A DNA stretch of 64,000 bases from a candidate division FCPU426 bacterium. GTDB lineage: Bacteria; Oederibacteriota; Muellerivitia; Muellerivitales; Muellerivitaceae. Below, piece by piece: positions 8,009-52,178 of the stretch. The stretch spans positions 320,001 to 384,000 of the forward strand of contig CAVRAL010000001.1 of assembly GCA_963719085.1 (NCBI GenBank). The letters run 5' to 3'. Below the pieces are notes generated by a model. The model saw only the letters and a program-made list of their open reading frames with translations. It made no database searches and was not told the DNA's origin. Position 1 is the stretch's first letter. Every line of letters begins with the position of its first letter. A program made the translations under genes and the position numbers.

Positions 8009-9084
8009 TGGAGTTATTAAACCAAGGCAACGGCCAACACAATTTTCACCGCCAAGACGCCAAGCTCGCCAAGAAAATCAAGAAACAATCGAGTTTTGAA
8101 AAACATTCATTTTTTAGCCTTACTTGGCGCACTTGGCGGCCACTCTTCCATAAAACAGTTAATGAGGGTGGCGCTGTCCCGCTTGTTTGGCCCAAGAGTG
8201 GGCCAGCGGGACGTCTTGGCGGTGAAAGGGTATTCAGTGTTTTGGCTTTGTTTGTTTGTCTTATGACAGTACCTTTGGCGGCCGTGGCGCAAACGCCCGT
8301 GCCGACCCCTTCGGCCAATACCTGGGACTATGCCGCTTTCCAAGCCGCCTTTAAGGCCAGCGGCCGCACGACGACCTTAACCCAGGAAAAGTTTGACGCG
8401 GTTCAGGTTCAAAAGAAGAAAGCCTATGACTATTTGAAGACCTATCTGGATGGCAAGTTCGGTAAGGCCAATCCCGCGGTCTTGGCCGGTTTCCAAGCTC
8501 TGCCGCGCGAGTATTACCACTACAACTACCAGAAGGGCAAAGATTTCTGCTCTTTGGCCTATGACATTCCCGGCAAGCCCTGGGCCATCGGTTATGGCTC
8601 CGCCTTGAGCGATTACCCCGGCCAGGCCTATATGATTCAGTTGGCCAGGCCGAAGCCCACGGATGTGGCTTTAGAAATTGGGACGGGAAGCGGTTACAAC
8701 ATTTCACTGCTCTCAAAAACAGTGAAGGAAGCCTACTCAATTGAGATCATCCAGCCTTTGGGTGAGGCGGTCTCCAACATTTTCGCGCCGCTTCATTTGA
8801 CCAACATCCATACCCGGGTCGGGGACGGCTTTTTCGGTTGGCCGGAGGTGAAGGGCGGGTTCAATTTGATCGTGGTTACCTGCGCCGCCCAATATGTGCC
8901 GCCCCAGCTTTTAGAACAGCTCAAGCCCAACGGCCGCATGATCATCCCCATCGGCCAGCCCTTCCGCGGCCATCAGGTGCTTTATGTCTATATGAAGGAC
9001 GCCGACGGCAAGGTTCATTCGAAGAAGGATATGGGCGTGTTCTTTATCCCGATGACGGGGCAGATGCAGAAGGGGAAGACGTAG
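8005..9084 (+). CDS. pcm: protein-L-isoaspartate O-methyltransferase-like protein with signal-peptide-like segment; start uncertain
   Basis: LEIGTGSGYN, GDGFFGWPE, QLKPNGRMIIPIG; ATG at 8005 overlaps upstream TGA; frame stays open across a palindromic element. Confidence 0.8.
   Translation: MMELLNQGNGQHNFHRQDAKLAKKIKKQSSFEKHSFFSLTWRTWRPLFHKTVNEGGAVPLVWPKSGPAGRLGGERVFSVLALFVCLMTVPLAAVAQTPVPTPSANTWDYAAFQAAFKASGRTTTLTQEKFDAVQVQKKKAYDYLKTYLDGKFGKANPAVLAGFQALPREYYHYNYQKGKDFCSLAYDIPGKPWAIGYGSALSDYPGQAYMIQLARPKPTDVALEIGTGSGYNISLLSKTVKEAYSIEIIQPLGEAVSNIFAPLHLTNIHTRVGDGFFGWPEVKGGFNLIVVTCAAQYVPPQLLEQLKPNGRMIIPIGQPFRGHQVLYVYMKDADGKVHSKKDMGVFFIPMTGQMQKGKT
8044..8227. repeat. palindrome family A, right arm interrupted by two-hairpin insert
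   Basis: TTTCACCGCCAAGACGCCAAGCTCGCCAAG ... CTTGGCGCACTTGGC[insert]GTCTTGGCGGTGAAA. Confidence 0.9.
8138..8212 (-). mobile_element. two-hairpin CGGGACA mini-element, copy 1 (subtype I)
   Basis: reverse complement closely matches 45896..45969 and sits at the same position in the host arm. Confidence 0.85.
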
Positions 9085-9166
9085 AGGTTAACAGAATTTT
9101 GAACAAGTATTAATCAAAACGGCTTTAGCTCATCGTTTAAACCGCAAAGTTACTCTCAAAAGCCAT

Positions 9167-9451
9167 TCAATAACCATTGAAGGGCGGTTCAAAACCCTTA
9201 TTTCCTAATGTTTTGAGAAATGCTGTCCCAGCTTCGGCAAAATTACCACCAAGCCACCCAATGAAAAAAAGAGAAATGAAAATCGATAAACGGGCGTTAT
9301 TGAATGATTTAGCCCTAATTTCTTGATTTATTTCTTTTTTCATTTTAACACGAATCTCCTTGATTAGAATTTTGGATTCTACAAAAACTAAAATAAAATG
9401 GTAAACATCCTCACAATAACCATTATGAGGATGTTTACCCGTACAGCTCAT
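9167..9451 (-). other. AT-rich orphan ORF or fragment bracketed by a 9-bp direct repeat
   Basis: composition visibly AT-rich relative to neighbours; AGCTCATCG at 9127-9135 and 9445-9453. Confidence 0.4.
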
Positions 9452-9544
9452 CGGTGATTTCTGAAATACCGTTGAAACAAGCTATGAAAAAACGGTAAAT
9501 CACAAACCTAGCTTTTGCCCCGCCTGCTTCCTAAGATAACCGCC

Positions 9545-12417: not shown

Positions 12418-13010
12418 ACCCCGGCCAGGGCCAACAGGCTTGGCGCCGATTTGGACGGCGAATTCCGGTCTTAGTTCCCCCGTGTTTTTAACCCCAGGCA
12501 CCTAAGTTGTTATTTATCAGACGCACCCAAGGCGCGCGAAAAAGCGGTTACTTCATCTTGGTCGAAGGCTTGACCTAAGGGAGCGAAAGCTTCTTGTTCG
12601 CGCGCGGTCTTGAAAAAAACACGTCGATTTCGCCGTTTTTGCATTTAAACCACTTTTTTTTAAATGATTTTTAGGGGTCACGACCCGGAAGACCTTCCTC
12701 GATTTTGCTAAAACACGTCTAAAATGAAAATTTTCTGGTCCGGATCAAAGCTGAAATTTTCGGTTCCGAGTGGTCGGAAAGTCGGTTGGCGGCGGTTTTG
12801 AACCGGCTCAGCGGCTTGGAATGAAGGCCCGCAGGGGCGTAAGCTGGCTTGGGGGCGGGGTTTCGCCGGTGATCCGGGAGGCGGCTTTTGAAAGACCAAT
12901 CATTTAAAGGCTTTCCCATAATTGGAACACCGAATCGGGATAGGTTGAAAAGGTCCGGAAGAATTACTTTAACCCTTCAAGCGGGTGGATTTTAAAGGCA
13001 AAGGCGGCGA

Positions 13011-15393: not shown

Positions 15394-15567
15394 TTGAGCA
15401 ATGATGCCCCGGGACCCCATTGAAGGAGTCAAGGAGGCCCGGGACAATACCGCTCTCTCTTGACTCCTTTATGGAAGAGCGGCGCGGACGCAGATAAACG
15501 CCGATTTATGATAAACATGGGATTAGGCAGCTTTTTATCGGCGTTCATCCGCATTTATCATTGTTAA
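15394..15567. repeat. palindrome family B, left arm interrupted
   Basis: GCAATGAT[insert]GGACGCAGATAAACGCCGAT ... ATCGGCGTTCATCCGCATTTATCATTGT. Confidence 0.85.
15406..15485 (+). mobile_element. two-hairpin CGGGACA mini-element, copy 2 (subtype II)
   Basis: GCCCCGGG...CCCGGGACAAT-CCGCTCT...AGAGCGGCGC. Confidence 0.85.
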
Positions 15568-18209: not shown

Positions 18210-20768
18210 TTACCGCAGGATCAGCAGTTTGCCGACCGCGTGGCCCTGGCGGGTGGTGACGAGGATGTAATAGACCCCATTGGCCAACGGCGCGCCTTTC
18301 GCGTCGGTGACCGGCAGGGGCAGGGTCACTAAGCCCGCGGGAATGTTGGGGTAGGATGCCTGGTTTATTTTTCGAAAGGCCGTGGTGAAGGTTTTCAGTT
18401 CCACCTCGGCGGCGGCGGTCTGCATTAAAAATTGGATGCTCACCGGGCCTGAACTGGTGGGTGGGTTAGGGAAAATCACCGGCGGGCCGATGGGCGGCCC
18501 GGCGATCAAGGTAGGGGTAATCGTTGGCGACAAGGTTTGCGTGGGGGTTTGGGTCGGCGTCGCGGTTGGGGTCGGGGTCGGCAGAGGCGTGTGGGTGCGC
18601 GTGGGAGTCGGCGTTGGGGTGATGGTCATGGTCTCCGTAAAGGTTGCCGTAGGGGTAATGGAGGGCGTTAAGGTCACTGTGCTGGTTTCCGTCGGCGTCT
18701 GAGTTTGAGTCGGGGTTTGTGTCACGGTCGGGGTTGGAGTGAGAGTGGGCGTGGCCGTGAGTGTGGCCGTCAAGGTAACGGTGGGCGTCAGCGTGATCGT
18801 CGGCGTAGGGGTAATCGTGGGAGTCAGGGTCACGGTGGCGGTAGGGGTAACGGAGGCGGTCCAGGTGGGGGTTCCGGTGATGGTCGGGGTCGAGGTAATG
18901 GTCGGCGATGAAGTCCAAGTCTTCGTCAAGGTCACGGTCGCCGTGGGAGTAACCGTGGCGGTCAGGGTGGGGGTCGGTGTTTGCGAGGGGGTGGAAGTTG
19001 GGGTCGGGGTTTTGGTCACGGTCGCCGTCGGGGTCACGGTCGGCGTGCGGGTGGGTGTCGGCGTGTATTGGGTCAGGGTGATCTCATATAAGGTGGCCGA
19101 ACGGAAGGGCAGGGTGTCGGAAAAGGTATTGGCGGTAAAGGTGGGCGCTGCCGCGGGCGTGTAGAGGTTATAGGTGGTGGAATCGAACCGAAAGACCCGC
19201 ATGGAGACAATTTGCTGTCCCGCGGTGAGGTTGCTCAGCGTGACGCTGGCTTGGTTGTTGTTGGTGTAATCCTTGTTTAAAAGAATCACGTTGAGGCGCC
19301 CGGGGTGGCTGGTGTCGGTGGCCGCGTAAGCGGAAGTCAGGGACACCGAGCTGGTATTGGCCAAGACCGCCGTGGTCCCGAATTTGGCGTTGGCGCCGTC
19401 ATAGTTCAAATACATCTTGTAGGCGGCTTTCACGTAAGTGTCACTGGTGCCGTCATCCCACCGGCAAGCATAGACCCCGTATTTCCCCAAAATGCCCAGC
19501 GCGTCGGCCTCCGCCACGCCGCCGGAGACGTCCTCGCCCGAACCGTATTGATATTCGGAAAAAGAAAGCTTGGTGCCCGGATAATACTGGCTGACCGCCG
19601 CTTGAAGCCGGGGAATCAGGGTGATGGGTTTGTTGCCGATCGAGGAAGTGATCCAACTGGTCTCAGTGTAGGTCGGGTCCCAAAGCGACCTCGGAGCTTC
19701 CATGCGGGCAATAGCGACACCCTGGGTAATATTATCGTTCGTAATGCGCACTTGGCTCACGCCGTTGCTTCCGGTAGCTTCCGGATACCAATGCAGGTCC
19801 AGGTAATGCAATAGGCGCCGACCCGCCGTGGTGGAGGCTGTCTTCATGCCGGCCAAGTAGTAGTTGAGATATTGGACGCTGTTTCCGTTGGTATAGGGCG
19901 TTAGCAGGCTGTCATCGGACGCGCCTTGGTTGTTCACGTACTCGGCCCAGCCATAGCAAACCGGGCCTAAGACCTGGGCGTTGGGATCCATGGAGGTGAT
20001 GACGGTGGAAAGGCTCACGCCTTTTCCTAAAACTTCCGCGCAGGTGGGCTGGGCGGGATGGATATAAGGATGGGTGCTGTTCCAAAGCGCCGGCTCGTTA
20101 TCCAAATCATAAAACTTAGCCCCGCCGGTTCCGGCCATCCCCACGGTGTTAAAAAGATAGTTGAGGGATTCATCCATATAAACATTGTTGTCGGTGGTCA
20201 CGGGCGCGGTGGTAAAAGCGGAGCCTTTCACATTGACGACTTGTTTCCAATAGACGCCGGCGGTGTCGGCGGCGCCGGTGATGGACACGCTGCAATCGCA
20301 ATTGCCGTTGGCGGACACATAACCGGCCATGGGCAGGGTGATGAGGGAGTCCGCGTTTCGGGCGTTGTTGTTTTCGATGAATTGGGTCATCACGGTGGCG
20401 GGCAGTTGGTTGGCGTTTTGGGGCGGCGCGGGGTTCATGACGGACAGCAGGTACCAATCCTCTTCGTTGATGTAATCAGTCCCGGCGTTGGAAGAATTGT
20501 TTTCCCAGTTATAGCCCGTCATGCGGTTCCCGCCTTGGCGGTAGTAGGGAATTTGGGTGACTCCGATATCCTGGTTGGTCCCGTAGCTATGGATGTCAAT
20601 GGCGCTGTTATTTTGGGTCGGATCAATGGTGAAATTAACCGTAACGGCCCAGGCGGAACCCGCCCCAGCCAAAAACGTTATGAGTGAAACGGTTAAAAAT
20701 TTTCTGGAGAAAATAGGAAAAATGAAACGCCGCCTTGGCTTTAGTGAAAGATTTGAAAAGTTTACCAC
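18210..20768 (-). CDS. secreted GH44 endoglucanase/xyloglucanase with Pro/Thr linker and T9SS-CTD-like C-terminal domain; start uncertain
   Basis: [34 protein letters not shown]; long (TP)n linker; FPNP...LANGVYY...KLLILR tail. Confidence 0.9.
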
Positions 20769-20814: not shown

Positions 20815-22923
20815 TTACAGCGGTTGATGGGTCGGTAGCGCTTTGAAAGGCGATCGGTCCTGGGTCAGGGCCGCTTGGTAGAAATCGTAAAGTTGTTTGT
20901 ACTCATCGCCCGGCAAAATCGTCCGTTTTTTCAGGCCCATATAACGCTCATAACTTAAGGTCCCGAATTGGATCTTCGAGTCGGCGATGAACTCCGCCAC
21001 GTTGTTGGAAATGGCCCCATCCTTGGGCAGGTCGCCGACTTTGTAACCCGGCGGCAACTTCACCACGACCCGGGTGACCGAGTTAAAGCTTTGGGGAACC
21101 ACGATAGGGGTTTTCCGGGTTTCACGCAAAGTCGCGAGGAAATCTTCCACGTCCTCAAAAATGACCGGGTAAAAGTTAAAGCCGCCCTTGGGCTGGAACT
21201 CGGCGTAGCCGGGAATGGTGAAGGAATATTTCACGTGCAGGGGCTGGGTGGTATCGCGGTAATCGCCGTAGGAATAATCCGTGAGGACGGCGCCCGGAAA
21301 ACGCTTGTTCAAACCCCTCAGGACCAAGTCCTTGCGTTTGTCATCCGTGGTGGCCCTAAAAAATTGGCGCAAGGCCAGGTCCGCCGACCCGAAGGCCTGC
21401 AAGTCCACGGTGCAGTTCAAGTCGCCGTTCGGGGAAAAGGTCATCAGGATGTCCCGTTCTTTGCGGTGGTCCTTGGCGCTGAAAGAAGGCGTGGATTGCC
21501 ATTGAAGCGGCGGCAAAACCGCCAGCGCGGAAAGCCCCAGCGCCTGCAGGGGCAAGGTGCCGGGGGCGGCCAGGGGCTCGGTGGGGTCCAGCCAGATAAA
21601 GTCCTTGCCCTGGGGAACGCCGATTAAGACCCCGTCCAACTGGGAAAGGGCCGGAAGGTCGCCGATCAACTCACCGCTGCCGGCTTGGCGGTAAAGAAAA
21701 AGCTGGGGATTAAGTTTAATGGCCTGGAGCGCGGCCATTAAAAGAAGCGCCATGTCGTGGGACGAGCCCTTGCCGCTGGCGATGATTTCCGCGAAGGGGC
21801 GGTCGGGATTCAAATAAACCGGAAGTCCCGTATCAACCCAGTCGACTTTTTCGTGGACGGTGTTTTTGAGTTTGGTGATCCGGTCGATCAGCGCGTCCGC
21901 CGTATTATCGCCGGCCTCGGCGACCAGCGCGTTGATGGCGGTCGGGTCCTGGGCCAGGGCGTTCTTGACCCTTTGGCGGTAGGGCAGGACAGCTTCTTCC
22001 CAGCTTTTATAAGTGGTGAAGGCGGTCAAGGGAGCCAAGTCTTGGATGGGCGGTTGGAAACTTTCGGAGGGGACCGGCGTGATGGAGGGGTTCATCGCCA
22101 AGTGGATGACGCGGTCTTTGGACCCGGTTTCGGAGATGGCCAGGTTCGCGGGCTGGCGCAGGCGGATGGCGTAAAGGGGCATTTGGGTGGATAGGCTCAG
22201 GGTCAATTCCCGGTTGAGGGAAGCGACATAATCATTCCACCGGAAAGCGAAACTGGGCTCGGCGGCCACCGGATGCTGTTTGGTGGGAGTTTTTAAAAGA
22301 TCGCTGGTGTGGTTGGTCAGGGTATAGGTCACGTCCAGGGCTTCGCCGGCTTGAAGGTCCGGCAGGCTATAAGACGCGATTTTGGAAAGCGCGGGCGGAA
22401 GGTTGGGTTGGGGCGGCTGGGACGTGATGGAAACGCCGGCCATGGATTCTTTCGTGAACCCACCGTCCGTTTCCAATTTGTATTTTTGGATTTGATTGAC
22501 GCTCAGGTCTTGGGATTCCAGGTTCAGGGTGGCCAGCGGGGGCAGGGGACGGTCGGGTTTGACCCGGGCGGCCCACATTTGATGGACGGTGACTTTCATA
22601 CTGCGGTCCAGGTTCCATTCCACCTGGGCCTCGTCCAACAGGTTCAACTGATTGGGAGCGTCGGGCTGGGCGAATTGGCTGGCGGCTTGGGAAAGGGATT
22701 GGGAGACCACGGGATCGTCCTGGGGGGTGATCTGGACCGGATTGGTGGCGCAACCGCTCAAGAAAAAAAGGAAAAACCCAAATCCACCGCAAAGACGCCA
22801 AGACGCCAAGGCAGGCAAGTCGCCGCCGAAATCTCGATTTTGATTTTTAAAAATTAGTTTGATATTCCGGAAAGAGGGGGGTTGCGACTTCCTTGGCGGT
22901 TTGGCGTCTTTGCGGTGAAACAT
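20815..22923 (-). CDS. DUF3857/transglutaminase-like/DUF3858 lipoprotein
   Basis: LSGC lipobox, LQAGEALDVTY, GKGSSHDMALLL, WLDPT, VVVKLPPGY. Confidence 0.75.
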   Translation of the reverse strand: MFHRKDAKPPRKSQPPSFRNIKLIFKNQNRDFGGDLPALASWRLCGGFGFFLFFLSGCATNPVQITPQDDPVVSQSLSQAASQFAQPDAPNQLNLLDEAQVEWNLDRSMKVTVHQMWAARVKPDRPLPPLATLNLESQDLSVNQIQKYKLETDGGFTKESMAGVSITSQPPQPNLPPALSKIASYSLPDLQAGEALDVTYTLTNHTSDLLKTPTKQHPVAAEPSFAFRWNDYVASLNRELTLSLSTQMPLYAIRLRQPANLAISETGSKDRVIHLAMNPSITPVPSESFQPPIQDLAPLTAFTTYKSWEEAVLPYRQRVKNALAQDPTAINALVAEAGDNTADALIDRITKLKNTVHEKVDWVDTGLPVYLNPDRPFAEIIASGKGSSHDMALLLMAALQAIKLNPQLFLYRQAGSGELIGDLPALSQLDGVLIGVPQGKDFIWLDPTEPLAAPGTLPLQALGLSALAVLPPLQWQSTPSFSAKDHRKERDILMTFSPNGDLNCTVDLQAFGSADLALRQFFRATTDDKRKDLVLRGLNKRFPGAVLTDYSYGDYRDTTQPLHVKYSFTIPGYAEFQPKGGFNFYPVIFEDVEDFLATLRETRKTPIVVPQSFNSVTRVVVKLPPGYKVGDLPKDGAISNNVAEFIADSKIQFGTLSYERYMGLKKRTILPGDEYKQLYDFYQAALTQDRSPFKALPTHQPL
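22785..22917. repeat. palindrome family A, in frame in the 5' end of the lipoprotein gene
   Basis: CACCGCAAAGACGCCAAGACGCCAAGG ... CCTTGGCGGTTTGGCGTCTTTGCGGTG. Confidence 0.9.
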
Positions 22924-22925: not shown

Positions 22926-23588
22926 TTAATTTTTGCCGGCGTTCTTCAGGGCCCGCACGGCTTCTTTCATGTCCGGCGCTTTGAAGATGGCGGTCGCGGC
23001 CACCAGCAGGTTGGCGCCCGCTTCCACCACCGCGGGGGCGGTTTGGGGGTTCATGCCGCCGTCCACGGCGATGATGGGGGAAAGCCCCTCGGCGGAGCAC
23101 CATTTGGAAAATCCGGCGATGTTGGGAACCACATGGGGGATGAAGGATTGGCCTGAGAAGCCGGGCCAGACCGACATGAAAAGGACGTAATCCAAATCCT
23201 TGGCGAAGGGTTTGAGGACCTCGTGGGAAGTGTCGGGGTTTAAGACCATGCCGGGTTTACAGTTCAACTTTTTGATTTGGGTGATTATCGCGCCCGGGTC
23301 CAAAACCGCCTCGGCGTGGAAAAGGATATAGGTGGAACCGGCCCTGGCGAAGTCGGGGACGTATTTTTCCACGTTCTCAATCATCAAGTGGGTATCGAAG
23401 GGGACATTCACTTTGCCCTTGAGCCCGGCGATGACGGGCGCGCCAAAGCTGATATTGGGCACGAAATGCCCGTCCATCACGTCCATGTGCAGCATGTCCA
23501 CGCCGGCCGCGATGGCTTCCTCGGAATTTTTTAAAAGATGGGCGAAATCGGCCGAGAGGATGGAGGCGGAAACTTGTAGGGGCTTCAT
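22926..23588 (-). CDS. rpe: ribulose-phosphate 3-epimerase
   Basis: SILSADF, HMDVMDGHFVPN, DTHLMI, VDGG. Confidence 0.97.
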   Translation of the reverse strand: MKPLQVSASILSADFAHLLKNSEEAIAAGVDMLHMDVMDGHFVPNISFGAPVIAGLKGKVNVPFDTHLMIENVEKYVPDFARAGSTYILFHAEAVLDPGAIITQIKKLNCKPGMVLNPDTSHEVLKPFAKDLDYVLFMSVWPGFSGQSFIPHVVPNIAGFSKWCSAEGLSPIIAVDGGMNPQTAPAVVEAGANLLVAATAIFKAPDMKEAVRALKNAGKN

Positions 23589-23805: not shown

Positions 23806-26800
23806 ATGAAACCTAAAAAATCCGCCGCTTCCGTTCCCGCGCCTCCCTCCTTGGAGGCCTTTCTCCAGCCATTCCTCGAGAACAGCCCCATCATTTTTTG
23901 GTTCATGAACCCGGAAGGCATCGTCGAGTTTTCCTTTGGCCGGGGTTTGGAATCGCTGGGGGTGACGCCCCAGGAGCGGGTGGGAAAATCCGTTTTCGAT
24001 ATTTATCGGGACCATCCGAAGGTTTTGGAGTGCCTGCGCCGCGCGATCCAAGGGGAATCCTTCTCGGAGGTTGTTCCGGTCGGGGATATTTTTTTCGAGA
24101 CGAAATTCATCCCGCGGTTGGACGGCCAAGGCCGGTTGACCGGTTCCATCGGGATCGCCACCGATGTCACGAGCCGTAAAAAAAACGAGGAGTTGATGGA
24201 CCGAAGGGAACAGCATTACCGGTCCTTGATCGAGAACTCCCATGACGTCATTTATATCCTCGACGACAAGGGACACCGCACCTACGAAAGCCCCTCGGTG
24301 GAGAAGGTGCTGGGCTACAAGCCCGGCGAGCGCGCCGGCAGAAGCGTGTATGACTATATCCATTCCGAAGACCACTCGAACGTGCGCGAGATCTTCGACA
24401 AGCTGGCCCACGTGCCGGGCGTCACTTACCGGGTGGAACTGCGCGCCCGGCACAAGGCCGGCGGATGGCGGAATGTGGAGGTGGCCATCACCAATTTGTT
24501 GGAAGACCCGGCGGTGCGGGGCTGGGTCGTTAATTTTTGGGACATCACGGAGCTCAAACGCGCCGGCGAGATCGTGGAAAAGCAGGAGCAGTATTACCGC
24601 GCCTTGACCGAAAATACCCACGAACTGGTCGTGCTTTTGGACCGGGAAGCGGTCATCCGATTCGCCACGCCGTCGATCCAGAAAATTCTGGGCCACCCCC
24701 TCTCGGACCGGATCGGAAAAAACTTTTTGGAATGGGTCCATCCGGAGGATATTTACCGCACCAAGGAAGTTTTCACCCAAACCTATCTCTCGACGGGGCG
24801 GACCATGACGGTGGATTTCCGCGCCAGGCACCGGGACGGCTCCTGGCGTTTTTTGGAAGCGGCGGTCACCAACCTTTTCAACCACCCGGCGGTGGAAGGA
24901 ATGATTTTAAACGCGCGGGATGTCACCGAACGCAAAAAAACCGACGAGGCTTTGCGGGACCGGGAACGCTACTTCAGGGCCCTGACCGAAAACGCCTATG
25001 ACGTGGTTTATGTCATCGACCGGGACGGACGGCGGTTTTACGAAAGTCCTTCCACCGAGCGGGTGCTGGGATTTCGGCCCGGCGACCGGGATCCCGAAAG
25101 CACCTTTTCCTATCTTCATCCGGAGGACCAGGCGGCGGGGAAGGCGGCTTTCCAAAAATCCCTTCAAAATCCCGGGGTGCCGGTGGCGGCGGAACTGCGC
25201 ACCCGGCATAAGGACGGCCGGTGGATCCATATGGAAGTGGTGGCCACCAACCTGCTTGACGTGGCCGCGGTCCGGGGCGTGGTGGTCAATTGCCGTGAGA
25301 TCACCGAGCGCAAAAAAGCCGAGGAGGACCTGCGCCATTCGGAGGAGCGGTTCCGCAACCTGATTGAGAGCTCCCACGACGTGGTGAATCTTTTTGACGG
25401 GACCGGAAAAATTCAATATGTCAGCCCGTCGGTGAAAAGGGTTTTGGGTTATGAGACCGCCGAATTGATCGGCCAAACCAGCTGGGAATGGATCCATCCG
25501 GAGGACCTGGCCAAAGCGAGTCCGGTTTTTGAGCAGGTCATGCGGGCCCCGGGGCAGTCCCGGTCCATTGAAATCCGCTTGAGGCATAAGGATGGAACCC
25601 ACAAAAATATCGACCTCACCATGACCAACCTTTTGGACAATCCCGCGGTGCGGGGTATTGTGGCCAATTACCGCGACGTGACCGAGCGGGTCCGCACCGA
25701 GGAAAAATTCAGGAACTTGATCGAGAACTCCCGGGATGTGATCGCCGTGGTGGACATGCAAGGGCGCTCCTTTTATGTCAGCCCCTCGATCCGCAAGGTG
25801 ATGGGTTACGAGCCGGAGGATTGGATGGACCGCAATTTCCTGGAGCTCATCCATCCGGACGAGCGGGAAGCCGCCCGGCAGGGATTTGAACAGCTCATGA
25901 CCAGCCCCGGCGGCTCCATTTCGGCCCAAGTCCGGGCCCTGCATAAAAACGGCTCCTGGCGGCTGGTGGACGTGACCTGCACCAACCTTTTGCAGGACCC
26001 GACGGTGCAGGGGATTATTTTCAATTACCGGGACATCACTGAAAAGTATATGGCGGAAGAAGCGGTGAAGGTTTCCGAAGAAAGATTCCGGAACCTGATC
26101 GAGAATTCCAATGACGTGATCTCGCTCGTCAACGCCCAGGGGACGAACCTCTATATCAGCCCCTCCATCCGGAAGGTCATGGGCTATGATCCGGACGAAA
26201 GGATGGGCCGGAACTTTTTTGAGATCATCCACCCGGAGGACTTGGGATGGATTAAGAATGAATATGAGGATTTTTTGAGGCAGAAGAACAGCGTGCGCAC
26301 GATCCAGGCGCGGGCCCGGCACCGGGACGGGACCTGGCGCACCGTGGAAGTGACGGCCACCAATCTGCTCGACCACCCCTCCGTGGCCGGCGTTATTTTC
26401 AATTACCGGGACGTCACCGAGCGCCGCAAGGCCGAAGCGGCCTTGAAAAAGTCCGAGGAGAATTTTAGGTCGCTCATTGAGAAATCGCCCGACGCCATGA
26501 TCGTCCATACCGAGGAGAAGATTTATTACGTCAATGAGGCCTTATTGAAGCTTTTGGGTTATGACCTGCCCGACGATCTGGTGGGCAAGTCGCCCTTGAG
26601 CATGCTCCATCCGGACGACCATGAGAGGGTTTTGATACGGATCCGAAGGCTCAAACCCTTTGAGGGATTCAACCCGCCCCAAGAAAAAAGGTTTTTGCGC
26701 AAGGACGGGGGTTATATCGAGGTGGAAACGGTGAGCTTCTCCATTCTTTTTGAGGGGTCGCCCATGGTGGTGGCCATCGCCCGCGACTTGACCGACCGCA

Positions 26801-27513
26801 AGACCACCGAACAGGCCCTTCTGAAGTACGAGCGCTTGGGCGCCATCGGGGAAATGGCCGCCGGCATGGCCCATGAGATCCGCAATCCCTTATCCGGCGT
26901 CCAATTGTCGGCGGAATACCTGCTGAAAAAATTCGGTCAAACCCCCGAGGCGGCGGACCAGATTAAAAATATATTGGAACAGGCCGGGCGTTTGCGCCAG
27001 CTGGTGGACGATACTTTGGATTATTCCAAGGATAAGTCGGTGAAGGAATTTCAATTGATGGACGTGATGACCTTGTTCCGCACTTCCTTGCGGCTGGCCC
27101 AGGTGCAGTACGGGCCCAATCACAGCCGTTTTAAGGTCCAATGGAAATTGGATTGGAACCTTTATTTTTTGAGGGTGAACCCTTACCGTGTCCAGCAGGT
27201 GCTGGTGAACCTCATCCTCAACGCCTTCCAGGCCATGGGGTCGGAGGGCGTCTTGACCTTGGGATGCGAAAAAGTGGGGGCGATGTTCCGGCTCTCGGTG
27301 GCGGATGACGGGCCGGGAATGCAGGACAAGGAGCTGGCCCGGATGTTCGAGCCTTTTTTCACGACGAAGAGCAGCGGGTCGGGCCTGGGGTTGTCGGTCA
27401 GCCAAAAGATCGCCGAATCCCACGGGGGAAAAATAAGCGTGGAACGCCTCCAACCCCGGGGAACGGTTTTTATCCTGGAACTACCCGCCGCCGCGGGAAA
27501 TGAGAATTCATGA
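23806..27513 (+). CDS. cytoplasmic sensor histidine kinase with 8 tandem PAS/PAC domains
   Basis: eight [F/Y]R.L.EN..D-type PAS starts; AHEIRNPL H-box; N, D(DDGPG), F(PFFTTK) and G boxes. Confidence 0.95.
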   Translation: MKPKKSAASVPAPPSLEAFLQPFLENSPIIFWFMNPEGIVEFSFGRGLESLGVTPQERVGKSVFDIYRDHPKVLECLRRAIQGESFSEVVPVGDIFFETKFIPRLDGQGRLTGSIGIATDVTSRKKNEELMDRREQHYRSLIENSHDVIYILDDKGHRTYESPSVEKVLGYKPGERAGRSVYDYIHSEDHSNVREIFDKLAHVPGVTYRVELRARHKAGGWRNVEVAITNLLEDPAVRGWVVNFWDITELKRAGEIVEKQEQYYRALTENTHELVVLLDREAVIRFATPSIQKILGHPLSDRIGKNFLEWVHPEDIYRTKEVFTQTYLSTGRTMTVDFRARHRDGSWRFLEAAVTNLFNHPAVEGMILNARDVTERKKTDEALRDRERYFRALTENAYDVVYVIDRDGRRFYESPSTERVLGFRPGDRDPESTFSYLHPEDQAAGKAAFQKSLQNPGVPVAAELRTRHKDGRWIHMEVVATNLLDVAAVRGVVVNCREITERKKAEEDLRHSEERFRNLIESSHDVVNLFDGTGKIQYVSPSVKRVLGYETAELIGQTSWEWIHPEDLAKASPVFEQVMRAPGQSRSIEIRLRHKDGTHKNIDLTMTNLLDNPAVRGIVANYRDVTERVRTEEKFRNLIENSRDVIAVVDMQGRSFYVSPSIRKVMGYEPEDWMDRNFLELIHPDEREAARQGFEQLMTSPGGSISAQVRALHKNGSWRLVDVTCTNLLQDPTVQGIIFNYRDITEKYMAEEAVKVSEERFRNLIENSNDVISLVNAQGTNLYISPSIRKVMGYDPDERMGRNFFEIIHPEDLGWIKNEYEDFLRQKNSVRTIQARARHRDGTWRTVEVTATNLLDHPSVAGVIFNYRDVTERRKAEAALKKSEENFRSLIEKSPDAMIVHTEEKIYYVNEALLKLLGYDLPDDLVGKSPLSMLHPDDHERVLIRIRRLKPFEGFNPPQEKRFLRKDGGYIEVETVSFSILFEGSPMVVAIARDLTDRKTTEQALLKYERLGAIGEMAAGMAHEIRNPLSGVQLSAEYLLKKFGQTPEAADQIKNILEQAGRLRQLVDDTLDYSKDKSVKEFQLMDVMTLFRTSLRLAQVQYGPNHSRFKVQWKLDWNLYFLRVNPYRVQQVLVNLILNAFQAMGSEGVLTLGCEKVGAMFRLSVADDGPGMQDKELARMFEPFFTTKSSGSGLGLSVSQKIAESHGGKISVERLQPRGTVFILELPAAAGNENS

Positions 27514-28862
27514 AAATTCTTGTCATCGACGACGAAAAGTCCATGCATGTGGCCTTGATTCCTTTTTTAAAGGAATTAGGCCATGAGGCCGAATCGGCCT
27601 TCACGGGCACCGAGGGGCGGCAGAAGGCGGCGGCCTTCAAGCCCGATTTGATCCTTTTGGACCTGTACCTGCCGGATGTCACGGGTTTGGAACTTTTAAG
27701 CGGGTTTCAAATGGAGTCGCCCGCGACCGGGGTCATCATTATGACGGCGGCCGCCGCCGTGAAGACCGCGGTGGAAGCCATGAAAAAGGGCGCGGAGGAT
27801 TATCTTCAAAAGCCGCTGAGCCTGGACGACATGGAGCTGGTGCTGGCCCGCTTTTTCAAGACCCAAAATTTGCGCCAGGACGTGGCGGCGCTCAAAGGCA
27901 GGCTGCGGGATGAGCTGGCGAGGGAATTCCTGATTCTTCCCGATCCGGCCATGCAGCCGCTTTACGCCCAAATTGAGCGGGTGGCCGAACAGGACAAGGT
28001 CACGGCTTTGGTCCTGGGTGAGACGGGGACGGGGAAGGAGCATGTGGCCAAGCTCATCCACACCCTGTCGGCGCGGTCGGCCAAGCCTTTCGTGGAACTT
28101 CACTGCGGGGCCCTGCCCGAGACCTTGATGGAATCCGAGCTTTTCGGCTATGAGGCGGGGGCCTTCACGGACGCCCGAAAACAAAAGCAGGGGCTTTTCG
28201 AGGCGGCCCAGGGAGGGAGCCTTTTTTTGGATGAGGTGGGCGAGATGCCTTTGGCCACCCAAACCAAATTATTGAAGGTCCTGGAAGACCGGAAACTGCG
28301 GCGCTTGGGCGGCATTAAGGAAATTGTTTTGGACGTGCGGGTGATCGCGGCCACCCACCGGGACCTGGAAGTGGAAGTGAAAGAAGGCCGTTTCCGGGCC
28401 GACCTTTATTACCGGCTCAACGTGATTCCTTTGAAACTTCCGCCCTTGCGCCAAAGGCCCGAGGATATCGCGGCCTTGGCGGTGTTTTTTTGGGAAGAAG
28501 CGGCCCGGGATTTCGGGCGCAAAATGGAGCCGCTTCCGGAGCCCGTCATGGAAAAATTAATGGCTTACCCCTGGCCGGGCAACGTGCGGGAACTTAAAAA
28601 CGCGGTCAACCGCATGGTGATCGGATCCCAGGGCGGCCGGGTGGGCTGGGGCGACCTGCCGGATGAGATCGCGGCCTTTGAGCCTTCGCTCCCGGAAAAC
28701 GCGGGCGAGGAATCGTTGGTTTTGGAAAAGGGCTCCAGCGAAAAAGATATGGTGGAAAAAGCCCTTCAACAGTCCCGGTGGAATAAATCCAAGGCCGCGG
28801 AGCTTTTGGGGGTCACCCGCAAGACGCTCTTCAACAAGATGAAAAAATACGACATCCACTAA
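27510..28862 (+). CDS. NtrC-family sigma-54-dependent response regulator
   Basis: receiver domain, GETGTGKE, ESELFG.EAGAFTDA, WPGNVREL, Fis-type HTH. Confidence 0.95.
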   Translation: MKILVIDDEKSMHVALIPFLKELGHEAESAFTGTEGRQKAAAFKPDLILLDLYLPDVTGLELLSGFQMESPATGVIIMTAAAAVKTAVEAMKKGAEDYLQKPLSLDDMELVLARFFKTQNLRQDVAALKGRLRDELAREFLILPDPAMQPLYAQIERVAEQDKVTALVLGETGTGKEHVAKLIHTLSARSAKPFVELHCGALPETLMESELFGYEAGAFTDARKQKQGLFEAAQGGSLFLDEVGEMPLATQTKLLKVLEDRKLRRLGGIKEIVLDVRVIAATHRDLEVEVKEGRFRADLYYRLNVIPLKLPPLRQRPEDIAALAVFFWEEAARDFGRKMEPLPEPVMEKLMAYPWPGNVRELKNAVNRMVIGSQGGRVGWGDLPDEIAAFEPSLPENAGEESLVLEKGSSEKDMVEKALQQSRWNKSKAAELLGVTRKTLFNKMKKYDIH

Positions 28863-28889
28863 GAACTTCTAACAAAAACCTAATTCACC

Positions 28890-28964
28890 GCCCCGCCCGG
28901 CCTAGTTAGGCCGAACCAGGCGGGACATACCACCCTCAATATCATTTTATATATGGATGGTGGT
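28890..28964 (+). mobile_element. two-hairpin CGGGACA mini-element, copy 3 (subtype I)
   Basis: GCCCCGCC-GGCCTA/TAGGCC-GGCGGGACAT-ACCACC...GGTGGT. Confidence 0.8.
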
Positions 28965-28974
28965 GCCAAGACGC

Positions 28975-30975: not shown

Positions 30976-30994
30976 ACTTTCAAAAGGCATTTTT

Positions 30995-31148: not shown

Positions 31149-31175
31149 GGATAGATTTACAGGAATCGCTTAGCC

Positions 31176-32168
31176 TTAATCGACCGGGAGTTCTTTCACG
31201 AATTCCTGGTTCAAGTAAATCTCCGCCGCCGCTTTTCCGCTGACCGTCACTCCCACTTCCACGTGATCTTTCGGCGACTCCATTTTGTTATAAACCGTGC
31301 GGGTTCCCGTGCTGTCAAATACGTCGATTTGCAGGCGGCGGGGATTTCCCTCGGGCATATCGTATTGAAGCGTCACGTAGCGCGCCTTCTGGTCCGCGGC
31401 GTCGCTGCTTTTGGCGCTGACGGTAAAAGTCACCTGGTCCTTTTCCTGGAGCTTGGTCCCCGCGGGGGGCGTTTGAACCAAGACGGTCTCCGAATCCAAG
31501 TCGTCATGCACCTCGCTCTTAATCTTTTGGATGGTGATGCCGGCCGGGCGCAAAAGTTTAAAGGCGTTTTCCAGGGATTTGTTCTTCAGGTCGGGCATGA
31601 CGAAAAAGGCCTGGTTGGGCCCGGCGGACACCAAAAGATTCACGGCGGTGAAAGCTTCCACGTTCGTTCCGGTTTCCGGGGTTTGGGCCAAGACCATGTC
31701 CTTGGCGTCGACCGCGGAATAAAGCAGGGATTCCTTCCCGATGCGCAGGCGGTTGGAGGCGAGTAAAATTTGGGCGTCTTGATACGACAGGCCCAGCACG
31801 GAGGGGATGGCCACTTTCGGGTTGCCCTTGCTTAAAACCGCCTGCACGACCTGGCCGCGGCGCATGTAGGTGTTGGGGGGCGGGGATTGCATCATGAAAA
31901 GTCCCGCGGGCACATGCTCGTCATATTGGGATTTGGTCACGGTCAGTTTGAGGGCTTTGGCCGACAAGGCCCGCCGGGCCTGGTCCGGATCCATGCCGAT
32001 GATTTTGGGGACGATCATGGGCTGGTGAAGCTCGGTCAGGTGCATGGTGAGGGCCCCGCAAAAAAAGGCCATCAGGCAAAAACTGCCCAGCAGGGTGAAG
32101 GCCCGTTTGAAAAGCTTTTTTTCCTTGGGCGTCATCGTGGCGGTTATTTTTTCAAGCCAGGGGAACAT
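31176..32168 (-). CDS. PASTA domain-containing membrane protein (3 PASTA)
   Basis: N-terminal TM; VPKIIG, IPSVLG, MPDLKN repeats with Q.P..GT. Confidence 0.9.
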   Translation of the reverse strand: MFPWLEKITATMTPKEKKLFKRAFTLLGSFCLMAFFCGALTMHLTELHQPMIVPKIIGMDPDQARRALSAKALKLTVTKSQYDEHVPAGLFMMQSPPPNTYMRRGQVVQAVLSKGNPKVAIPSVLGLSYQDAQILLASNRLRIGKESLLYSAVDAKDMVLAQTPETGTNVEAFTAVNLLVSAGPNQAFFVMPDLKNKSLENAFKLLRPAGITIQKIKSEVHDDLDSETVLVQTPPAGTKLQEKDQVTFTVSAKSSDAADQKARYVTLQYDMPEGNPRRLQIDVFDSTGTRTVYNKMESPKDHVEVGVTVSGKAAAEIYLNQEFVKELPVD

Positions 32169-34839: not shown

Positions 34840-34860
34840 GCTGGTCTCCACCAAAACCAA

Positions 34861-35024
34861 CTGCTCACGCAAAGACGCTAAGACGCCAAGGAAACATTGA
34901 GAATTAAATGATTTTTTGAGAGTCTATTCTTGTTGTTGGCGGCTTAGCCGTTTTGAAAACCGTCTCTTTCATTCTGCTTAAAAGATTTGCCTTCCTTTGC
35001 GTCTTAGCGTCTTTGTGTGAGCGG
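34861..35024. repeat. palindrome family A variant (empty)
   Basis: GCTCACGCAAAGACGCTAAGACGCCAAGG ... CCTTTGCGTCTTAGCGTCTTTGTGTGAGC. Confidence 0.9.
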
Positions 35025-35123
35025 TTTGTGTTGGTTAAGTTTTTCGAGTAGCCGGGTTGCTTTTCCCCTTCGGTTTTCTTAAGTTCACAAGGATTTAACA
35101 CTCTTCATTCCCTCAGGAGCCTT

Positions 35124-37513: not shown

Positions 37514-37541
37514 TCGATATGCTAAAGAAAAACTGAATTTT

Positions 37542-37626
37542 ACAATGATGAACGCAGATGAAAACAGATTTTCAAAAAATTAAGGCTTATCTATTTTCAT
37601 CAGCGTCCATCTGCGTTCATCATTGT
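37542..37626. repeat. palindrome family B (empty reference copy)
   Basis: ACAATGATGAACGCAGATG ... CATCTGCGTTCATCATTGT perfect 19-bp arms. Confidence 0.9.
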
Positions 37627-38129: not shown

Positions 38130-38140
38130 AAACCCAAAAC

Positions 38141-38237
38141 AAGTTTTGAATTTTGAGTTTTAAGTTTTGGCGTGTTTTTGTGCCATGGGCTCAAAAACGT
38201 CTTTAACTTAAAACCTAAAACTTAGAACTTAAAACTT
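38141..38237. repeat. palindrome of tandem heptamers (RAGTTTT)n / (AAACTTA)n
   Basis: four heptamers, an inner hairpin, then about five complementary heptamers. Confidence 0.85.
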
Positions 38238-38249
38238 TTGTGAGGTCTT

Positions 38250-41635: not shown

Positions 41636-41736
41636 TTTCACCACCAAGGCACCAAGACGCCAAGGACGGCTAAACTGAGGGTATTTAACCCAAATTATTT
41701 TTGCTTTCTTGGTGTCTTGGTGCCTTGGTGGTAAAA
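41636..41736. repeat. palindrome family A variant (empty)
   Basis: ACCACCAAGGCACCAAGACGCCAAG ... CTTGGTGTCTTGGTGCCTTGGTGGT. Confidence 0.9.
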
Positions 41737-43103: not shown

Positions 43104-43280
43104 GCCGGGTCTTATTTTCCCGTCGCTGGCTCCGGAGCCCCGGCACACCCAGGGCGCGGTCTTCGACTCCTGGCCGAAGATCTGGGGGGGGTTAGAAGTG
43201 TTTTGAAAATGAAGGTTTGTGTTATTATACGGCTCCTCAAAACCGGCCCTTTCGGGGCCTTTTTTATTTGTCTCGCCTTC

Positions 43281-43309
43281 CTTGGCGCCTTGGCGTCTTG
43301 GCGGTGAAA
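43281..43309. repeat. solo right arm of family A
   Basis: CTTGGCGCCTTGGCGTCTTGGCGGTGAAA with no left arm upstream. Confidence 0.75.
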
Positions 43310-43330
43310 TTTAGGTAATAGGAGTTTTTC

Positions 43331-45777: not shown

Positions 45778-45818
45778 GTTCGGGAAGCGAAGTCCGGAAA
45801 AGCAGGATTTTAAAACCG

Positions 45819-45860
45819 AAAACTCCCTTTTTCCCGGTTGGGAAGAGGGAGTTTTTTTTT
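45819..45860 (+). terminator. intrinsic terminator
   Basis: AAAACTCCCTTTTTCCC/GGGAAGAGGGAGTTTT hairpin plus T-run. Confidence 0.8.
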
Positions 45861-45880
45861 AATGTTTTTAATTGAAACAA

Positions 45881-46062
45881 TTTTACCGCCAAGGCGCCCC
45901 GCTGGCCCATTGGGGGCCAAACGAGCGGGACAGTGCCGCCCCCATTAATTTTTTTATGGAGGGGCGGCCGCCAAGTTCGCCAAGAACAGCGAAAGACGAA
46001 GGCTTTTAAAACATATTTGGATTTAGCCTTTCTTGGCGAACTTGGCGCCTTGGCGGTGAAAA
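45881..46062. repeat. palindrome family A, left arm interrupted
   Basis: removing the insert gives ACCGCCAAGGCGCCAAGTTCGCCAAGAA, the exact reverse complement of the right arm. Confidence 0.92.
45896..45969 (+). mobile_element. two-hairpin CGGGACA mini-element, copy 7 (subtype I)
   Basis: GCCCCGCT-GGCCC...GGGCC-AGCGGGACAGT-GCCGCCCC...GGGGCGGCC. Confidence 0.88.
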
Positions 46063-48950: not shown

Positions 48951-49087
48951 ACCACAGAGTACACAGAGTTACACGGAGTAAGGCGGCAGGCTGCATCAAT
49001 TGAAGTTTGAACAAGTTTTTAACCAAGTGATTTATCTGTCATAAAAGGACTTTGTTTTACTCTGTGTAACTCTGCGTACTCTGCGGT
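48951..49087. repeat. palindrome family C
   Basis: ACCACAGAGTACACAGAGTTACACGGAGTAA ... TTACTCTGTGTAACTCTGCGTACTCTGCGGT. Confidence 0.9.
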
Positions 49088-50919: not shown

Positions 50920-50934
50920 TCCAACGGAGGCCTC

Positions 50935-51987
50935 ATGAATCGTGTCCATCCCAAAACCAAGCTGGTTTGCACCATCGGCCCCGCTTGCCGCTCCGACGCC
51001 ATGCTGGAAAAACTTCTGGTGGCCGGCATGAACGTGGCCCGGATCAATTTCGCCCACGGCACCATTGAGAAGAACGGCGAGGACATCCACCGCGTCCGCA
51101 AGGCTTCCCTCAAAACCAAGCGCCCCTGCCAAATTTTGGCCGACCTGCCGGGCCCCAAGATCCGCGTAGGCCAATTGCGGCACGAGCCCGTGAACCTGGT
51201 GCATGGCAAGACCGTTTGGCTCACCACCCGAAAAATTTCCGGCAACGTGGCCCATATCCCCATCGAGTATCCCCAGCTTACCCAAAGCGTGAAGAAGGGG
51301 AGCGTGATCTACCTCAATGACGGCTTCATGCAACTGCTGGTCCTTTCGGTCAAGGGGACCGAGGTGGAATGTAAGGTGCTGGTGGGCGGGGAATTGTTCA
51401 CCCACAAGGGATTGAACCTTCCCTCGGCGAAGCTTTTCGTGGACCCTGTGACACCCCATGACCTGGAGATTTTGGAGTACGGCATGAAGGAGGGGGTGGA
51501 CTTCTTCGGGGTTTCCTTTGTCCAACGGGCAGCCGATCTGCTGAAAGTTCGCGCCTTCGCCAGCAAGCGGGGGAAAATCGTCAAGATCATCGCCAAAATT
51601 GAGCGTTCGGAAGCCATCCGCAACATCGATTCCATCCTCAAGGTCACCGACGGAATCATGGTGGCCCGGGGCGACTTGGGCGTGGAAGTTCCCATTGAGA
51701 CCATGCCCATCCTCCAAAAGCGGCTCATCGCCAAGGCCAACTGGGCCGGGGTGCCGGTCATCACGGCCACCCAGATGCTGGAATCCATGACCCACAACAT
51801 CCGCCCTACCCGGGCGGAAGTCACCGACGTGGCCAACGCCATTTTGGACGGAACCGACGGCGTCATGCTCTCGGGCGAGACCGCCATCGGCGAGGACCCG
51901 GTCAATACGGTGGAAATGATGGGCAAGATCGCCGTTTCGGTGGAAAAAGCTTTCCTGAAGGAAAAATCAGCGGTGCATTGGTTTTAA
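50935..51987 (+). CDS. pyk: pyruvate kinase (short, lacks the C-terminal domain)
   Basis: [47 protein letters not shown]. Confidence 0.92.
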
Positions 51988-52004
51988 AGTCTTCCGGCAA
52001 AAAA

Positions 52005-52178
52005 ATTAGCAATGATATCCCGGGATTCCATATTGTGGTTAAAGATACCCGGGACAATGTCGCTCTCCCCTAACTTCTAAATGAGGAAGCGACGCGAACG
52101 CAGATGGAAGCCGATAGAAGATTTGTGAACCATTTGAATTTGTTTAATCCGCGTGTATCTGCGTTCATCATTGCTAAT
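52005..52178. repeat. palindrome family B, left arm interrupted
   Basis: ATTAGCAATGAT[insert]GAACGCAGAT ... ATCTGCGTTCATCATTGCTAAT. Confidence 0.92.
52017..52095 (+). mobile_element. two-hairpin CGGGACA mini-element, copy 8 (subtype II)
   Basis: ATCCCGGG...CCCGGGACAATGTCGCT...AGCGACGC. Confidence 0.88.

Follow-up and report, generated by a model that had tools for sequence, protein, structure and literature searches.

How does one and the same small two-hairpin element come to lie, eight times over, within the arms of other repeats in a single stretch of bacterial DNA? The stretch analysed here, called the window throughout, is a 64-kb piece of a genome assembly of a candidate division FCPU426 bacterium (contig CAVRAL010000001.1, positions 320,001 to 384,000), with a G+C content of 55% and no N. 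We found that the element entered two unrelated families of repeat arms by precise insertion on at least three occasions, leaving no target duplication. It probably is, or once was, a mobile unit of some kind, and a non-autonomous element that parasitises another repeat family is the best available interpretation, if an unproven one.

Of the eight copies only G is truncated; the other seven have their full length of 74-80 nt. The copies were named A, B, C1, C2, G, D, E and F and oriented with hairpin 1 first, a reading direction that lies on the minus strand in A and G and on the plus strand in the other six. In the list that follows, bit scores refer to a covariance model, R1, built from all eight copies, and fold z-values compare the predicted DNA fold of a copy with that of shuffled sequences.

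Copy A, 8138-8212, minus strand: complete at 75 nt; splits the right arm of a family-1 palindrome; 75.6 bits; fold z -4.67.
Copy B, 15406-15485, plus strand: complete at 80 nt; follows CAATGAT and splits the left arm of a family-2 palindrome; 79.7 bits; fold z -3.48.
Copy C1, 28890-28964, plus strand: complete at 75 nt; inserted ahead of the first CAAG of a solitary family-1 arm; 60.2 bits; fold z -4.89.
Copy C2, 28975-29048, plus strand: complete at 74 nt; 10 nt downstream of C1 in the same arm, ahead of its second CAAG; 66.4 bits; fold z -3.76.
Copy G, 29094-29142, minus strand: truncated to GCCCGGGACA plus hairpin 2; splits a solitary family-2 arm where B, D and F split theirs; 58.8 bits.
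Copy D, 31003-31082, plus strand: complete at 80 nt; splits the left arm of a family-2 palindrome with a degenerate partner arm; 74.8 bits; fold z -1.40.
Copy E, 45896-45969, plus strand: complete at 74 nt; shares its insertion site with A and splits the left arm of a family-1 palindrome; 78.3 bits.
Copy F, 52017-52095, plus strand: complete at 79 nt; splits the left arm of a family-2 palindrome; 74.2 bits.

All eight copies had been reported in a preliminary description of the window, and all hold the layout given there, which we read as (N)YCCCG, hairpin 1, CGGGACA, a spacer of 1-3 nt and hairpin 2 with an AT-rich loop. The layout is complete in the seven full-length copies but not in G (29094-29142), which has no hairpin 1 and reads CACAGAT/GCCCGGGACAACGCC..., the slash marking a junction here and below. 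Aligned over eight rows and 86 columns, the copies have a mean column identity of 68%; CGGGACA is invariant across them and CCCG stands at the 5' side of the seven full copies, while the other conserved positions are the A in the 3' bulge of hairpin 1 and a few invariant bases in hairpin 2. The two hairpins differ in character. Hairpin 1 is GC-rich and conserved in sequence; CCCGNN/NNCGGG forms its outer stem, a further 4-6 pairs make up the inner stem, which has decayed in copy D, and on the 3' side there is a bulge of 5-8 nt starting with AA. Hairpin 2, which follows ACA and the 1-3 nt spacer, has a stem of 8-10 pairs and an AT-rich loop of 12-20 nt, in which A, B, D and E retain the string TTTATGG. 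Its stem is variable yet paired, just as the preliminary description had it: the four stem pairs quoted there are all present (in E, C1, C2 and F).

The hairpin-1 stem of the B/D/F subfamily is the self-complementary CCCGGG, and its two halves are for that reason also direct repeats of each other. Copy G probably lost its hairpin 1 through a deletion between two direct CCCGGGAC copies of this stem. As an observation apart, copies B, D and F carry CAATG or CAATA as the five bases that follow hairpin 1, echoing the CAATG on their left flank (15397-15450, 30996-31047 and 52010-52060), so that hairpin 1 alone seems flanked by a 5-nt direct repeat in these copies; this concerns one lineage only and may be chance.

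The element sits in a dense setting of other repeats. The window is rich in long inverted repeats, intergenic or intercistronic, with arms made of tandem short units of 8 nt (CGCCAAGA-like) or 10 nt (GATGAACGCA-like) and with AT-rich, mutually unrelated loops. A family-1 arm reads TTTCACC-GCCAAGAC-GCCAAGCT-CGCCAAG, with the variant CACGCAAAGACGCTAAGACGCCAAGG, and a family-2 arm reads CAATGAT-GAACGCAGAT-GAACGCNGAT. We counted 18 arm-bearing loci, ten of family 1, six of family 2 and two others, three of the 18 being solitary arms; seven of the 18 are filled with the element. Most lie 5-30 nt past a stop codon between co-directional genes, within apparent operons such as pyrB-pyrC-carA, and in this genomic position they are like repetitive extragenic palindromic (REP) sequences and bacterial interspersed mosaic elements (BIMEs). 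The host arms of the eight copies, together with two empty palindromes used for comparison, are listed below, the palindromes being given without strand.

Host palindrome of A, 8043-8227: family 1, tandem CGCCAAGN units; arms at 8043-8075, and at 8113-8137 plus 8213-8227.
Host palindrome of B, 15397-15563: family 2, arms CAATGAT(GAACGCNGAT)n.
Solitary arm split by C1 and C2, 28883-29066, plus strand: family 1 (TTCACC/GCCAAGACGC/CAAGCTCGCCAAGAA), no partner arm.
Solitary arm split by G, 29070-29150, minus strand: family 2, no partner arm.
Host palindrome of D, 30996-31143: family 2, weak partner arm.
Host palindrome of E, 45881-46062: family 1.
Host palindrome of F, 52010-52173: family 2.
Empty family-2 palindrome, 37541-37625: reference for the unfilled site CAATGAT/GAACGCAGAT.
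Empty family-1 palindrome, 56799-56924: one of seven family-1 loci without the element, the others being at 22780, 34850, 41636, 43272, 55750 and 58231.

Alignment of the family-1 palindromes set the element apart as one block, which A and E have and six other palindromes lack; in family 2 it again forms one block, found in B, D, F and G but missing from two palindromes. For each palindrome, the reverse complement of its own partner arm served as the empty-site reference. Removal of E then gave 27 of 27 contiguous matches to the partner arm across the junction, and removal of F gave 20 of 20. The remaining palindromes are less clean: A matches at 26 of 28 positions in the arm core, B matches at CAATGAT and imperfectly thereafter, and D matches at 20 of 40, its partner arm being too decayed for judgement. 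Since the arm restored by removal agrees with its partner at every base around the junction in E and F, no target sequence has been duplicated, in agreement with the preliminary description. The insertion into a pre-existing repeat that it proposed is likewise borne out, in that paralogous arms are filled or empty at the same position and removal restores complementarity. Its claim that every copy interrupts an arm of a larger palindrome has to be narrowed: an arm is interrupted in all eight cases, but C1, C2 and G lie in solitary, partnerless arms where no palindrome exists. The boundaries themselves are sharp. Those of F cannot be shifted by even one base (CAATGAT/ATCCCGGG...GCGACGC/GAACGCAGAT), and the others for which a slide was seen move by 2 nt (GC) in E and C1 and by 1 nt in A.

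The insertions fall at three distinct sites in the two unrelated arm families. The first, in family 2, lies between CAATGAT and GAAC or GGAC and is used by B, D, F and G; the second, in family 1, lies before the second CAAG of the arm and is used by A and E, and by C2 after normalising ambiguous bases; the third, also in family 1, lies before the first CAAG of the arm and is used by C1. Arms make up 16.4% of the intergenic DNA left after element removal, and the probability that all copies would lie in arms, based on our own arm list, is 0.0044 for three independent sites; counted over seven loci it is 3e-6. All eight copies have the same orientation when read along the polarity of their arm, which amounts to a few independent observations only, because copies at the same site may share ancestry. 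With respect to replication, hairpin 1 comes first on the plus strand in six of the eight copies, a bias that is not significant; GC skew is positive in every 8-kb window of the 64 kb.

Need there be a transposon at all? Hairpin blocks could also arise from replication or repair errors, such as template switching, in long palindromes and be homogenised later, and it would suit such an origin that every copy lies in slippage- and hairpin-prone DNA and that the 5-nt CAATG recurs around hairpin 1 in B, D and F. Independent errors would not, however, yield this element, because the same CCCG...CGGGACA block and the same two-hairpin build recur in two unrelated arm families, with sharp, duplication-free junctions. 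We therefore regard an origin by error as very improbable.

A different question is whether the element still moves, or whether it has long been carried passively. Pairwise identity among the seven full copies is 53-81% (closest are A-E at 0.81, D-F at 0.75 and B-D at 0.73), and because of this spread the family is taken to be either old or derived from diverse sources. A block might have entered the arms two or three times long ago, or have arisen in them, and since then have been immobile, copied along with the host palindromes and kept because its folded DNA or RNA is of some use to the cell or to the host repeat, for example as a protein-binding site like the extra motifs of E. coli BIMEs. 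Such a history is in keeping with the age of all copies at 53-81% identity, and with the position shared by B, D, F and G and likewise by A and E; the core and the pairing, kept in every full copy, would fit selection in place. Mean identity is also higher within a host family (about 0.70) than between families (about 0.62), a pattern that fits either subfamily-specific targeting or co-amplification with the host repeat. It accords poorly, on the other hand, with the tandem C1/C2 pair in one arm and the three positions in two unrelated arm families, which together indicate that the element entered repeatedly as a unit, and with the filling of only seven of the 18 arm loci. The loops of the host palindromes, moreover, are at chance identity (A-E 0.52, B-F 0.41), so that common descent of whole composites is not visible. 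A weaker point in the same sense is that C2, which shares the site of A and E, is 0.61 and 0.67 identical to them, yet C1, at the other site, reaches 0.70 and 0.70. Weighing both sides, we consider a purely passive, immobile block unlikely, though with a real chance of being right.

The search for further copies was made with R1, in line with the suggestion of the preliminary description that a covariance model be built from the eight copies. With the filters off, no ninth copy was found in the window. The eight known copies score 58.8-79.7 bits, which is expected by construction, since they train the model, and the informative part of the scan is for this reason the gap below them: the next match, at 21.8 bits, is the antisense of copy B, and the best unrelated match in the window reaches 15.9 bits (E 0.031). 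Nor does hairpin 1 occur on its own in the intergenic DNA of the window: the pattern CCCG-N12-40-CGGGAC gives 13 matches in the window for 12.2 expected, ten of them within known copies and three in coding regions. CGGGACA alone is barely enriched in the window (17 matches, 10.6 expected).

Both hairpins are backed by compensatory changes. RNAalifold predicts 20 pairs, of which 12 show changes on both sides; the share of paired cells is 83.8%, against 71.2 +/- 2.0 in shuffles, and the covariation score is 0.448, against 0.215, neither value being reached by any of 500 shuffles. Sliding the partners by 1-3 columns lowers the pairing to 38-51%. Folded as DNA, six of the eight copies beat all 200 of their shuffles (z -3.2 to -4.9), the exceptions being D, for which 18 of 200 shuffles were as good, and the truncated G (8 of 200). 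The host region of E, folded with the element in place, forms a four-way junction of outer stem, hairpin 1, hairpin 2 and inner stem. A loose resemblance between hairpin 2 and the host arms (CCGCC/CACC), noticed by eye only, was dropped.

Covarying stems are also what a structured RNA would show, whether a cis-regulatory element or a small RNA located in 3' untranslated or intercistronic regions, and all copies do lie 27-231 nt past the left-hand neighbouring gene. The strand of the element relative to transcription is mixed, however: C1, C2 and E are sense, A, B and G antisense, and D and F, between convergent genes, ambiguous. G-U pairs and their mirror C-A pairs are equally frequent, at 11 each, and both strands of the element fold equally well; because of these three properties taken together, the data speak for a signal at the level of DNA and not for an oriented RNA. 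Promoter and terminator signals, scanned over 28800-31250, are not above chance. As for known RNA families, no Rfam family reaches its gathering threshold across the window, consistent with the preliminary description, whose author had recognised no described element; Rfam 15 gave no match in the whole window and, under an E-value threshold, nothing near the gathering threshold for three loci, the best match over the element being Rhizobiales-2 (21.5 bits against a threshold of 40, E 1.2). Matches to microRNA-like families (14-27 bits against thresholds of 50-120) were rejected as generic long-hairpin noise on the host palindrome. A structured RNA is accordingly a quite improbable identity for the element.

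The invariant core and the kept pairing mean that selection has acted, either on replicating lineages through recognition by an enzyme or on each copy in place through a function for the host. That CCCG and CGGGACA are conserved in seven to eight of eight copies, despite an overall identity of 53-81%, fits selection for recognition by a protein. The two ends of the element are unlike and are not mutual inverted repeats; each is a covarying hairpin, as in elements moved by HUH-type enzymes.

The flank of the element adds a short sequence rule. Immediately 3' of the end of hairpin 2 stands GAAC in F, GGAC in B and D and CAAG in C2, and in E and C1 CAAG is found there within the 2-nt ambiguity; CAAG, GAAC or GGAC fits the 3' flank in six of eight copies and at all three distinct sites. 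To gauge this fit, the element was placed at every position of its own empty arm under the same ambiguity rule. A random arm position was compatible in 9 of 37 cases for E, 6 of 37 for C1, 3 of 37 for C2 and 2 of 35 for F, and the product over the three sites is about 0.002. Elements of the IS91 family, as described in PMC13181058, insert without duplication beside 5'-CTTG, GTTC or, less often, GTCC, and the target tetranucleotide abuts their oriIS end only, with imperfect palindromes at both ends. The flank motifs CAAG, GAAC and GGAC are these same IS91-family targets read on the other strand. For IS801, the targets given in PMC3189936 are GAAC, GGAC, CAAG and CGAC, and its miniature derivatives described there measure 229-679 nt. 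We also observed that each arm unit of families 1 and 2 holds a tetranucleotide of the IS91 target type.

Site-specific entry into repeats is known from another class of enzyme as well, and the element might be a mini-module moved by an IS110/IS1111-type transposase (DEDD, guided by a bridge RNA), much as ssr9 is in relation to ISPpu9. Members of this family of insertion sequences (IS) enter REPs site-specifically, in one orientation and without long duplication. The gene-less ssr9 uses the transposase of the REP-targeting ISPpu9 (PMC12288879, PMC1525189). In the window, a GC at both junctions of E and C1 resembles a core dinucleotide; F, by contrast, has no shared dinucleotide, with AT at its start and GC/GA at its end. 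At 75-80 nt, the element is probably too short for a bridge RNA. Three different targets would require three guide RNAs, and the mechanism gives no reason for end hairpins that are conserved and covary. We judge movement by such an enzyme to be improbable.

Our favoured explanation is that the element is a very small (74-80 nt), non-autonomous, hairpin-ended DNA, comprising little beyond two unlike hairpins, which an HUH-type enzyme encoded elsewhere moves in single-stranded form; we give this account as a whole slightly less than an even chance. Its present mobility, the single-stranded route, the class of the enzyme and the role of the tetranucleotide are what we infer within it. An HUH nuclease or transposase with its gene elsewhere in the genome would excise the element and reinsert it as single-stranded DNA; the enzyme would be either of type Y1, as in IS200/IS605-RAYT, or of type Y2, as in IS91. 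Having recognised the folded ends, it would place the element in a single orientation, and with no duplication, immediately beside CAAG, GAAC or GGAC on the element strand. The host arms, as tandem units that each contain the target motif and can be extruded as hairpins, would offer preferred landing sites that are harmless to the cell.

Several observations count against movement by an HUH-type enzyme. No two copies are more than 81% identical, and there is no sign of recent movement. Only three sites are independent, since copies at the same site may have been co-copied with the host repeat. The flank rule has exceptions in A, where CCAAG is one base off, and in G, where the flank is GCGC, and the flank test is post hoc, the tetranucleotide pattern having been seen before the comparison with the IS91 literature. 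Longer or autonomous copies, or a transposase, were not seen within the 64 kb. When 185,579 species genomes were scanned for the pattern of the B/D/F/G subfamily, five loci came up, all in unrelated organisms; all score below 20 bits with R1 and are chance matches. Either the source lineage is missing from that collection or its relatives lack this subfamily, and no second genome is known to carry the family. The departures from known systems in how the element begins, ends and is arranged, set out in the comparison at the close, belong on the same side of the balance.

A bolder form of the proposal is that the element is a hyperparasitic micro-transposon, two hairpins moved as single-stranded DNA by an HUH-type enzyme and lodged almost solely in arms that array its target tetranucleotide (CAAG/GAAC) on extruded hairpins; the arms would then give this further tier of selfish DNA a safe place to land, or even act as decoys for it, in a still uncultured bacterial lineage. 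We think it doubtful that all of this holds. If the proposal were true, the element would be among the smallest structured mobile DNAs and a clean case of one repeat family parasitising another, with the simple rule that it is joined directly before CAAG, GAAC or GGAC. It would then provide a handle on how HUH-type enzymes choose single-stranded, hairpin-forming targets, on the layered build-up of dense intergenic repeat systems, and on the evolution of such repeats in a lineage known only from metagenome-assembled genomes.

The surroundings of the element are otherwise those of an ordinary chromosomal region. Pfam searches of 54 open reading frames (ORFs) assigned ffh, hisG, hisS, aspS, phoH-ybeY-corC, era, pyk, pyrB, pyrC, carA and carB, along with a PAS-rich histidine kinase accompanied by a sigma-54 activator, and glycoside hydrolases. 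A PCMT methyltransferase gene (about 8263-9084, plus strand) and rpe, for ribulose-phosphate 3-epimerase (22926-23588, minus strand), are each masked by a longer overlapping open frame in a simple ORF pick. The window contains no tRNA gene. For AspS, the closest relatives in a protein search are 71-94% identical, and a next group, at about 56%, includes proteins named for Desulfobulbales-type bacteria. No transposase, HUH nuclease or recombinase was matched in it by Pfam on the 54 ORFs, with the unassigned ORFs rechecked and three further ORFs included, and the preliminary description, which had placed the mobilising enzyme outside the window, holds in this respect among the ORFs searched. All copies except F are crossed by open frames, which measure 30-387 codons. 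A search of a protein collection with the frame that crosses copy E, as a probe for spurious ORFs, gave no candidate. Gene callers may over-extend or invent ORFs across the copies, and R1 can be used for annotating elements and so for keeping gene callers from calling frames over them.

Two coding regions contain internal repeats of their own. Within the minus-strand GH44 ORF at 18210-20768, positions 18511-19064 (about 550 nt) are taken up by repeats with a 6-nt period, GTNGGN when read on the plus strand; on the coding strand they would give a Thr/Pro-rich linker. At 24219-26481, in the ORF at 23806-27513, internal repeats with a 378-nt period match the seven PAS domains of the 1235-aa histidine kinase. 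A 593-nt intergenic region at 12418-13010, with no ORF assigned and no Rfam match, has a predicted DNA fold of -102.5 kcal/mol.

Further arm repeats complete the picture of the intergenic DNA. The inverted-repeat loci of families 1 and 2 that were also recorded, and two palindromes of other types, are as follows, again without strand.

Families 1 and 2: 504-576, 22780-22920, 34850-35035, 41636-41736, 43272-43311, 55750-55859 and 58231-58338.
Third palindrome type, 38140-38240: units like AGTTTTGA; seen once; no element.
Fourth palindrome type, 48951-49087: units like CACAGAGTA; seen once; no element.

The single intergenic region at 28863-29238 brings together C1, C2 and G with a solitary family-1 and a solitary family-2 arm in opposite polarity. 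Just after the latter arm, at about 29146-29175 on the plus strand, a hairpin followed by a T-run looks like an intrinsic terminator by eye; it is absent from the listing of the consensus scan. GC-rich hairpins with T-runs at 43230-43311 and 45818-45862 are terminator-like by eye; a solitary family-1 arm follows directly on the first and the palindrome of E on the second. If the hairpins at 43230 and 45818 are terminators, arm repeats occur beyond terminators as well as between cistrons.

How, then, does the element compare with systems already described? Searches of the literature in general terms found no such element; term searches cannot recognise an element by its sequence, so "undescribed" is provisional. 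Plasmids and phages gave no blastn match for three loci used as queries. A classical miniature inverted-repeat transposable element was rejected as an identity, the ends not being complementary to each other and a duplication being absent.

The gene-less derivatives of IS200/IS605 offer one set of likenesses. In the account of PMC10055086 these have hairpin ends, a motif at one end, a single-stranded intermediate and no duplication. As described in PMC10055086 and PMC2817692, such PATE-like derivatives, moved by a Y1 HUH TnpA ("peel-out-paste-in"), share with the element the lack of terminal inverted repeats, unlike hairpins at the ends, insertion without duplication and a single orientation; their adjoining short motif has a candidate counterpart in the tetranucleotide beside the hairpin-2 end of the element. 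They are non-autonomous and moved in trans (PMC10055086, PMC2817692), which for the element is proposed. Their hairpins, however, are subterminal, with adjacent guide bases, whereas those of the element are flush with its ends, and the element measures 74-80 nt in all, with two hairpins unlike each other. No convincing case of guide and cleavage-site pairing in the IS200/IS605 style was found by eye on the element sequences, and no Y1 HUH TnpA is encoded within the 64-kb window.

With IS91 and IS801 the element has in common, going by PMC13181058 and PMC3189936, the absence of duplication, a target tetranucleotide at one end only, palindromes at both ends and the existence of short gene-less derivatives, 229-679 nt long, that are mobile. 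It differs in that a terIS end should finish in target-like sequence, while the element, on that strand, ends in GGAC, GGGC, GGAT, CGGG or GGGA, and in being several-fold smaller than the functional derivatives of those two papers, where the ends of a mini-IS91 are 89 and 82 bp. No Y2 HUH transposase occurs within the 64-kb window. IS91 is not known to prefer repeats.

REP sequences and the REPINs associated with RAYT genes invite comparison with hairpin 1. The REPs tabulated with RAYT genes in PMC2817692 have a GTAG or GTGG head and a GC-rich imperfect hairpin, and hairpin 1, read on the other strand, is a TGT head followed by a GC-rich imperfect hairpin of about 35 nt. Both kinds of repeat, as far as that source describes them, are intergenic, abundant (eight copies in 64 kb for the element) and long-lived, with conserved structure. 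The head of the element is TGTC, however, and not GTAG or GTGG, and its eight copies include no inverted doublets. Hairpin 1 is moreover always coupled to an unrelated second hairpin and nested in other repeats, unlike a REP standing alone.

That one repeat family should serve as the landing site of another element has precedents. IS elements are known to target REPs (PMC1525189), and another repeat family as landing site is what the element shares with ISPpu9/ISPpu10, ISPa11, IS1397, IS621 and ssr9, going by PMC1525189, PMC3184786 and PMC12288879. The likeness to ssr9 extends to its being, as PMC12288879 describes it, a small, gene-less, selfish module that parasitises a transposase, that of ISPpu9. 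These are nonetheless full IS, or a module with A'/B' boxes, with one target each and DDE or DEDD enzymes, whereas the element has three sites in two arm families and hairpin ends.

The BIMEs of enterobacteria, as described in PMC2817692, are likewise composite intergenic or intercistronic repeats built of several kinds of module. The comparison with them turns on where the additional sequence lies. In BIMEs the extra motifs lie between palindromic units; the element, by contrast, interrupts arms at a fixed point, and most arms lack it. Taken together, the element is assigned to none of IS91, IS200/IS605, REP/RAYT or IS110/IS1111, and works most like a hairpin-ended element moved by an HUH-type enzyme.

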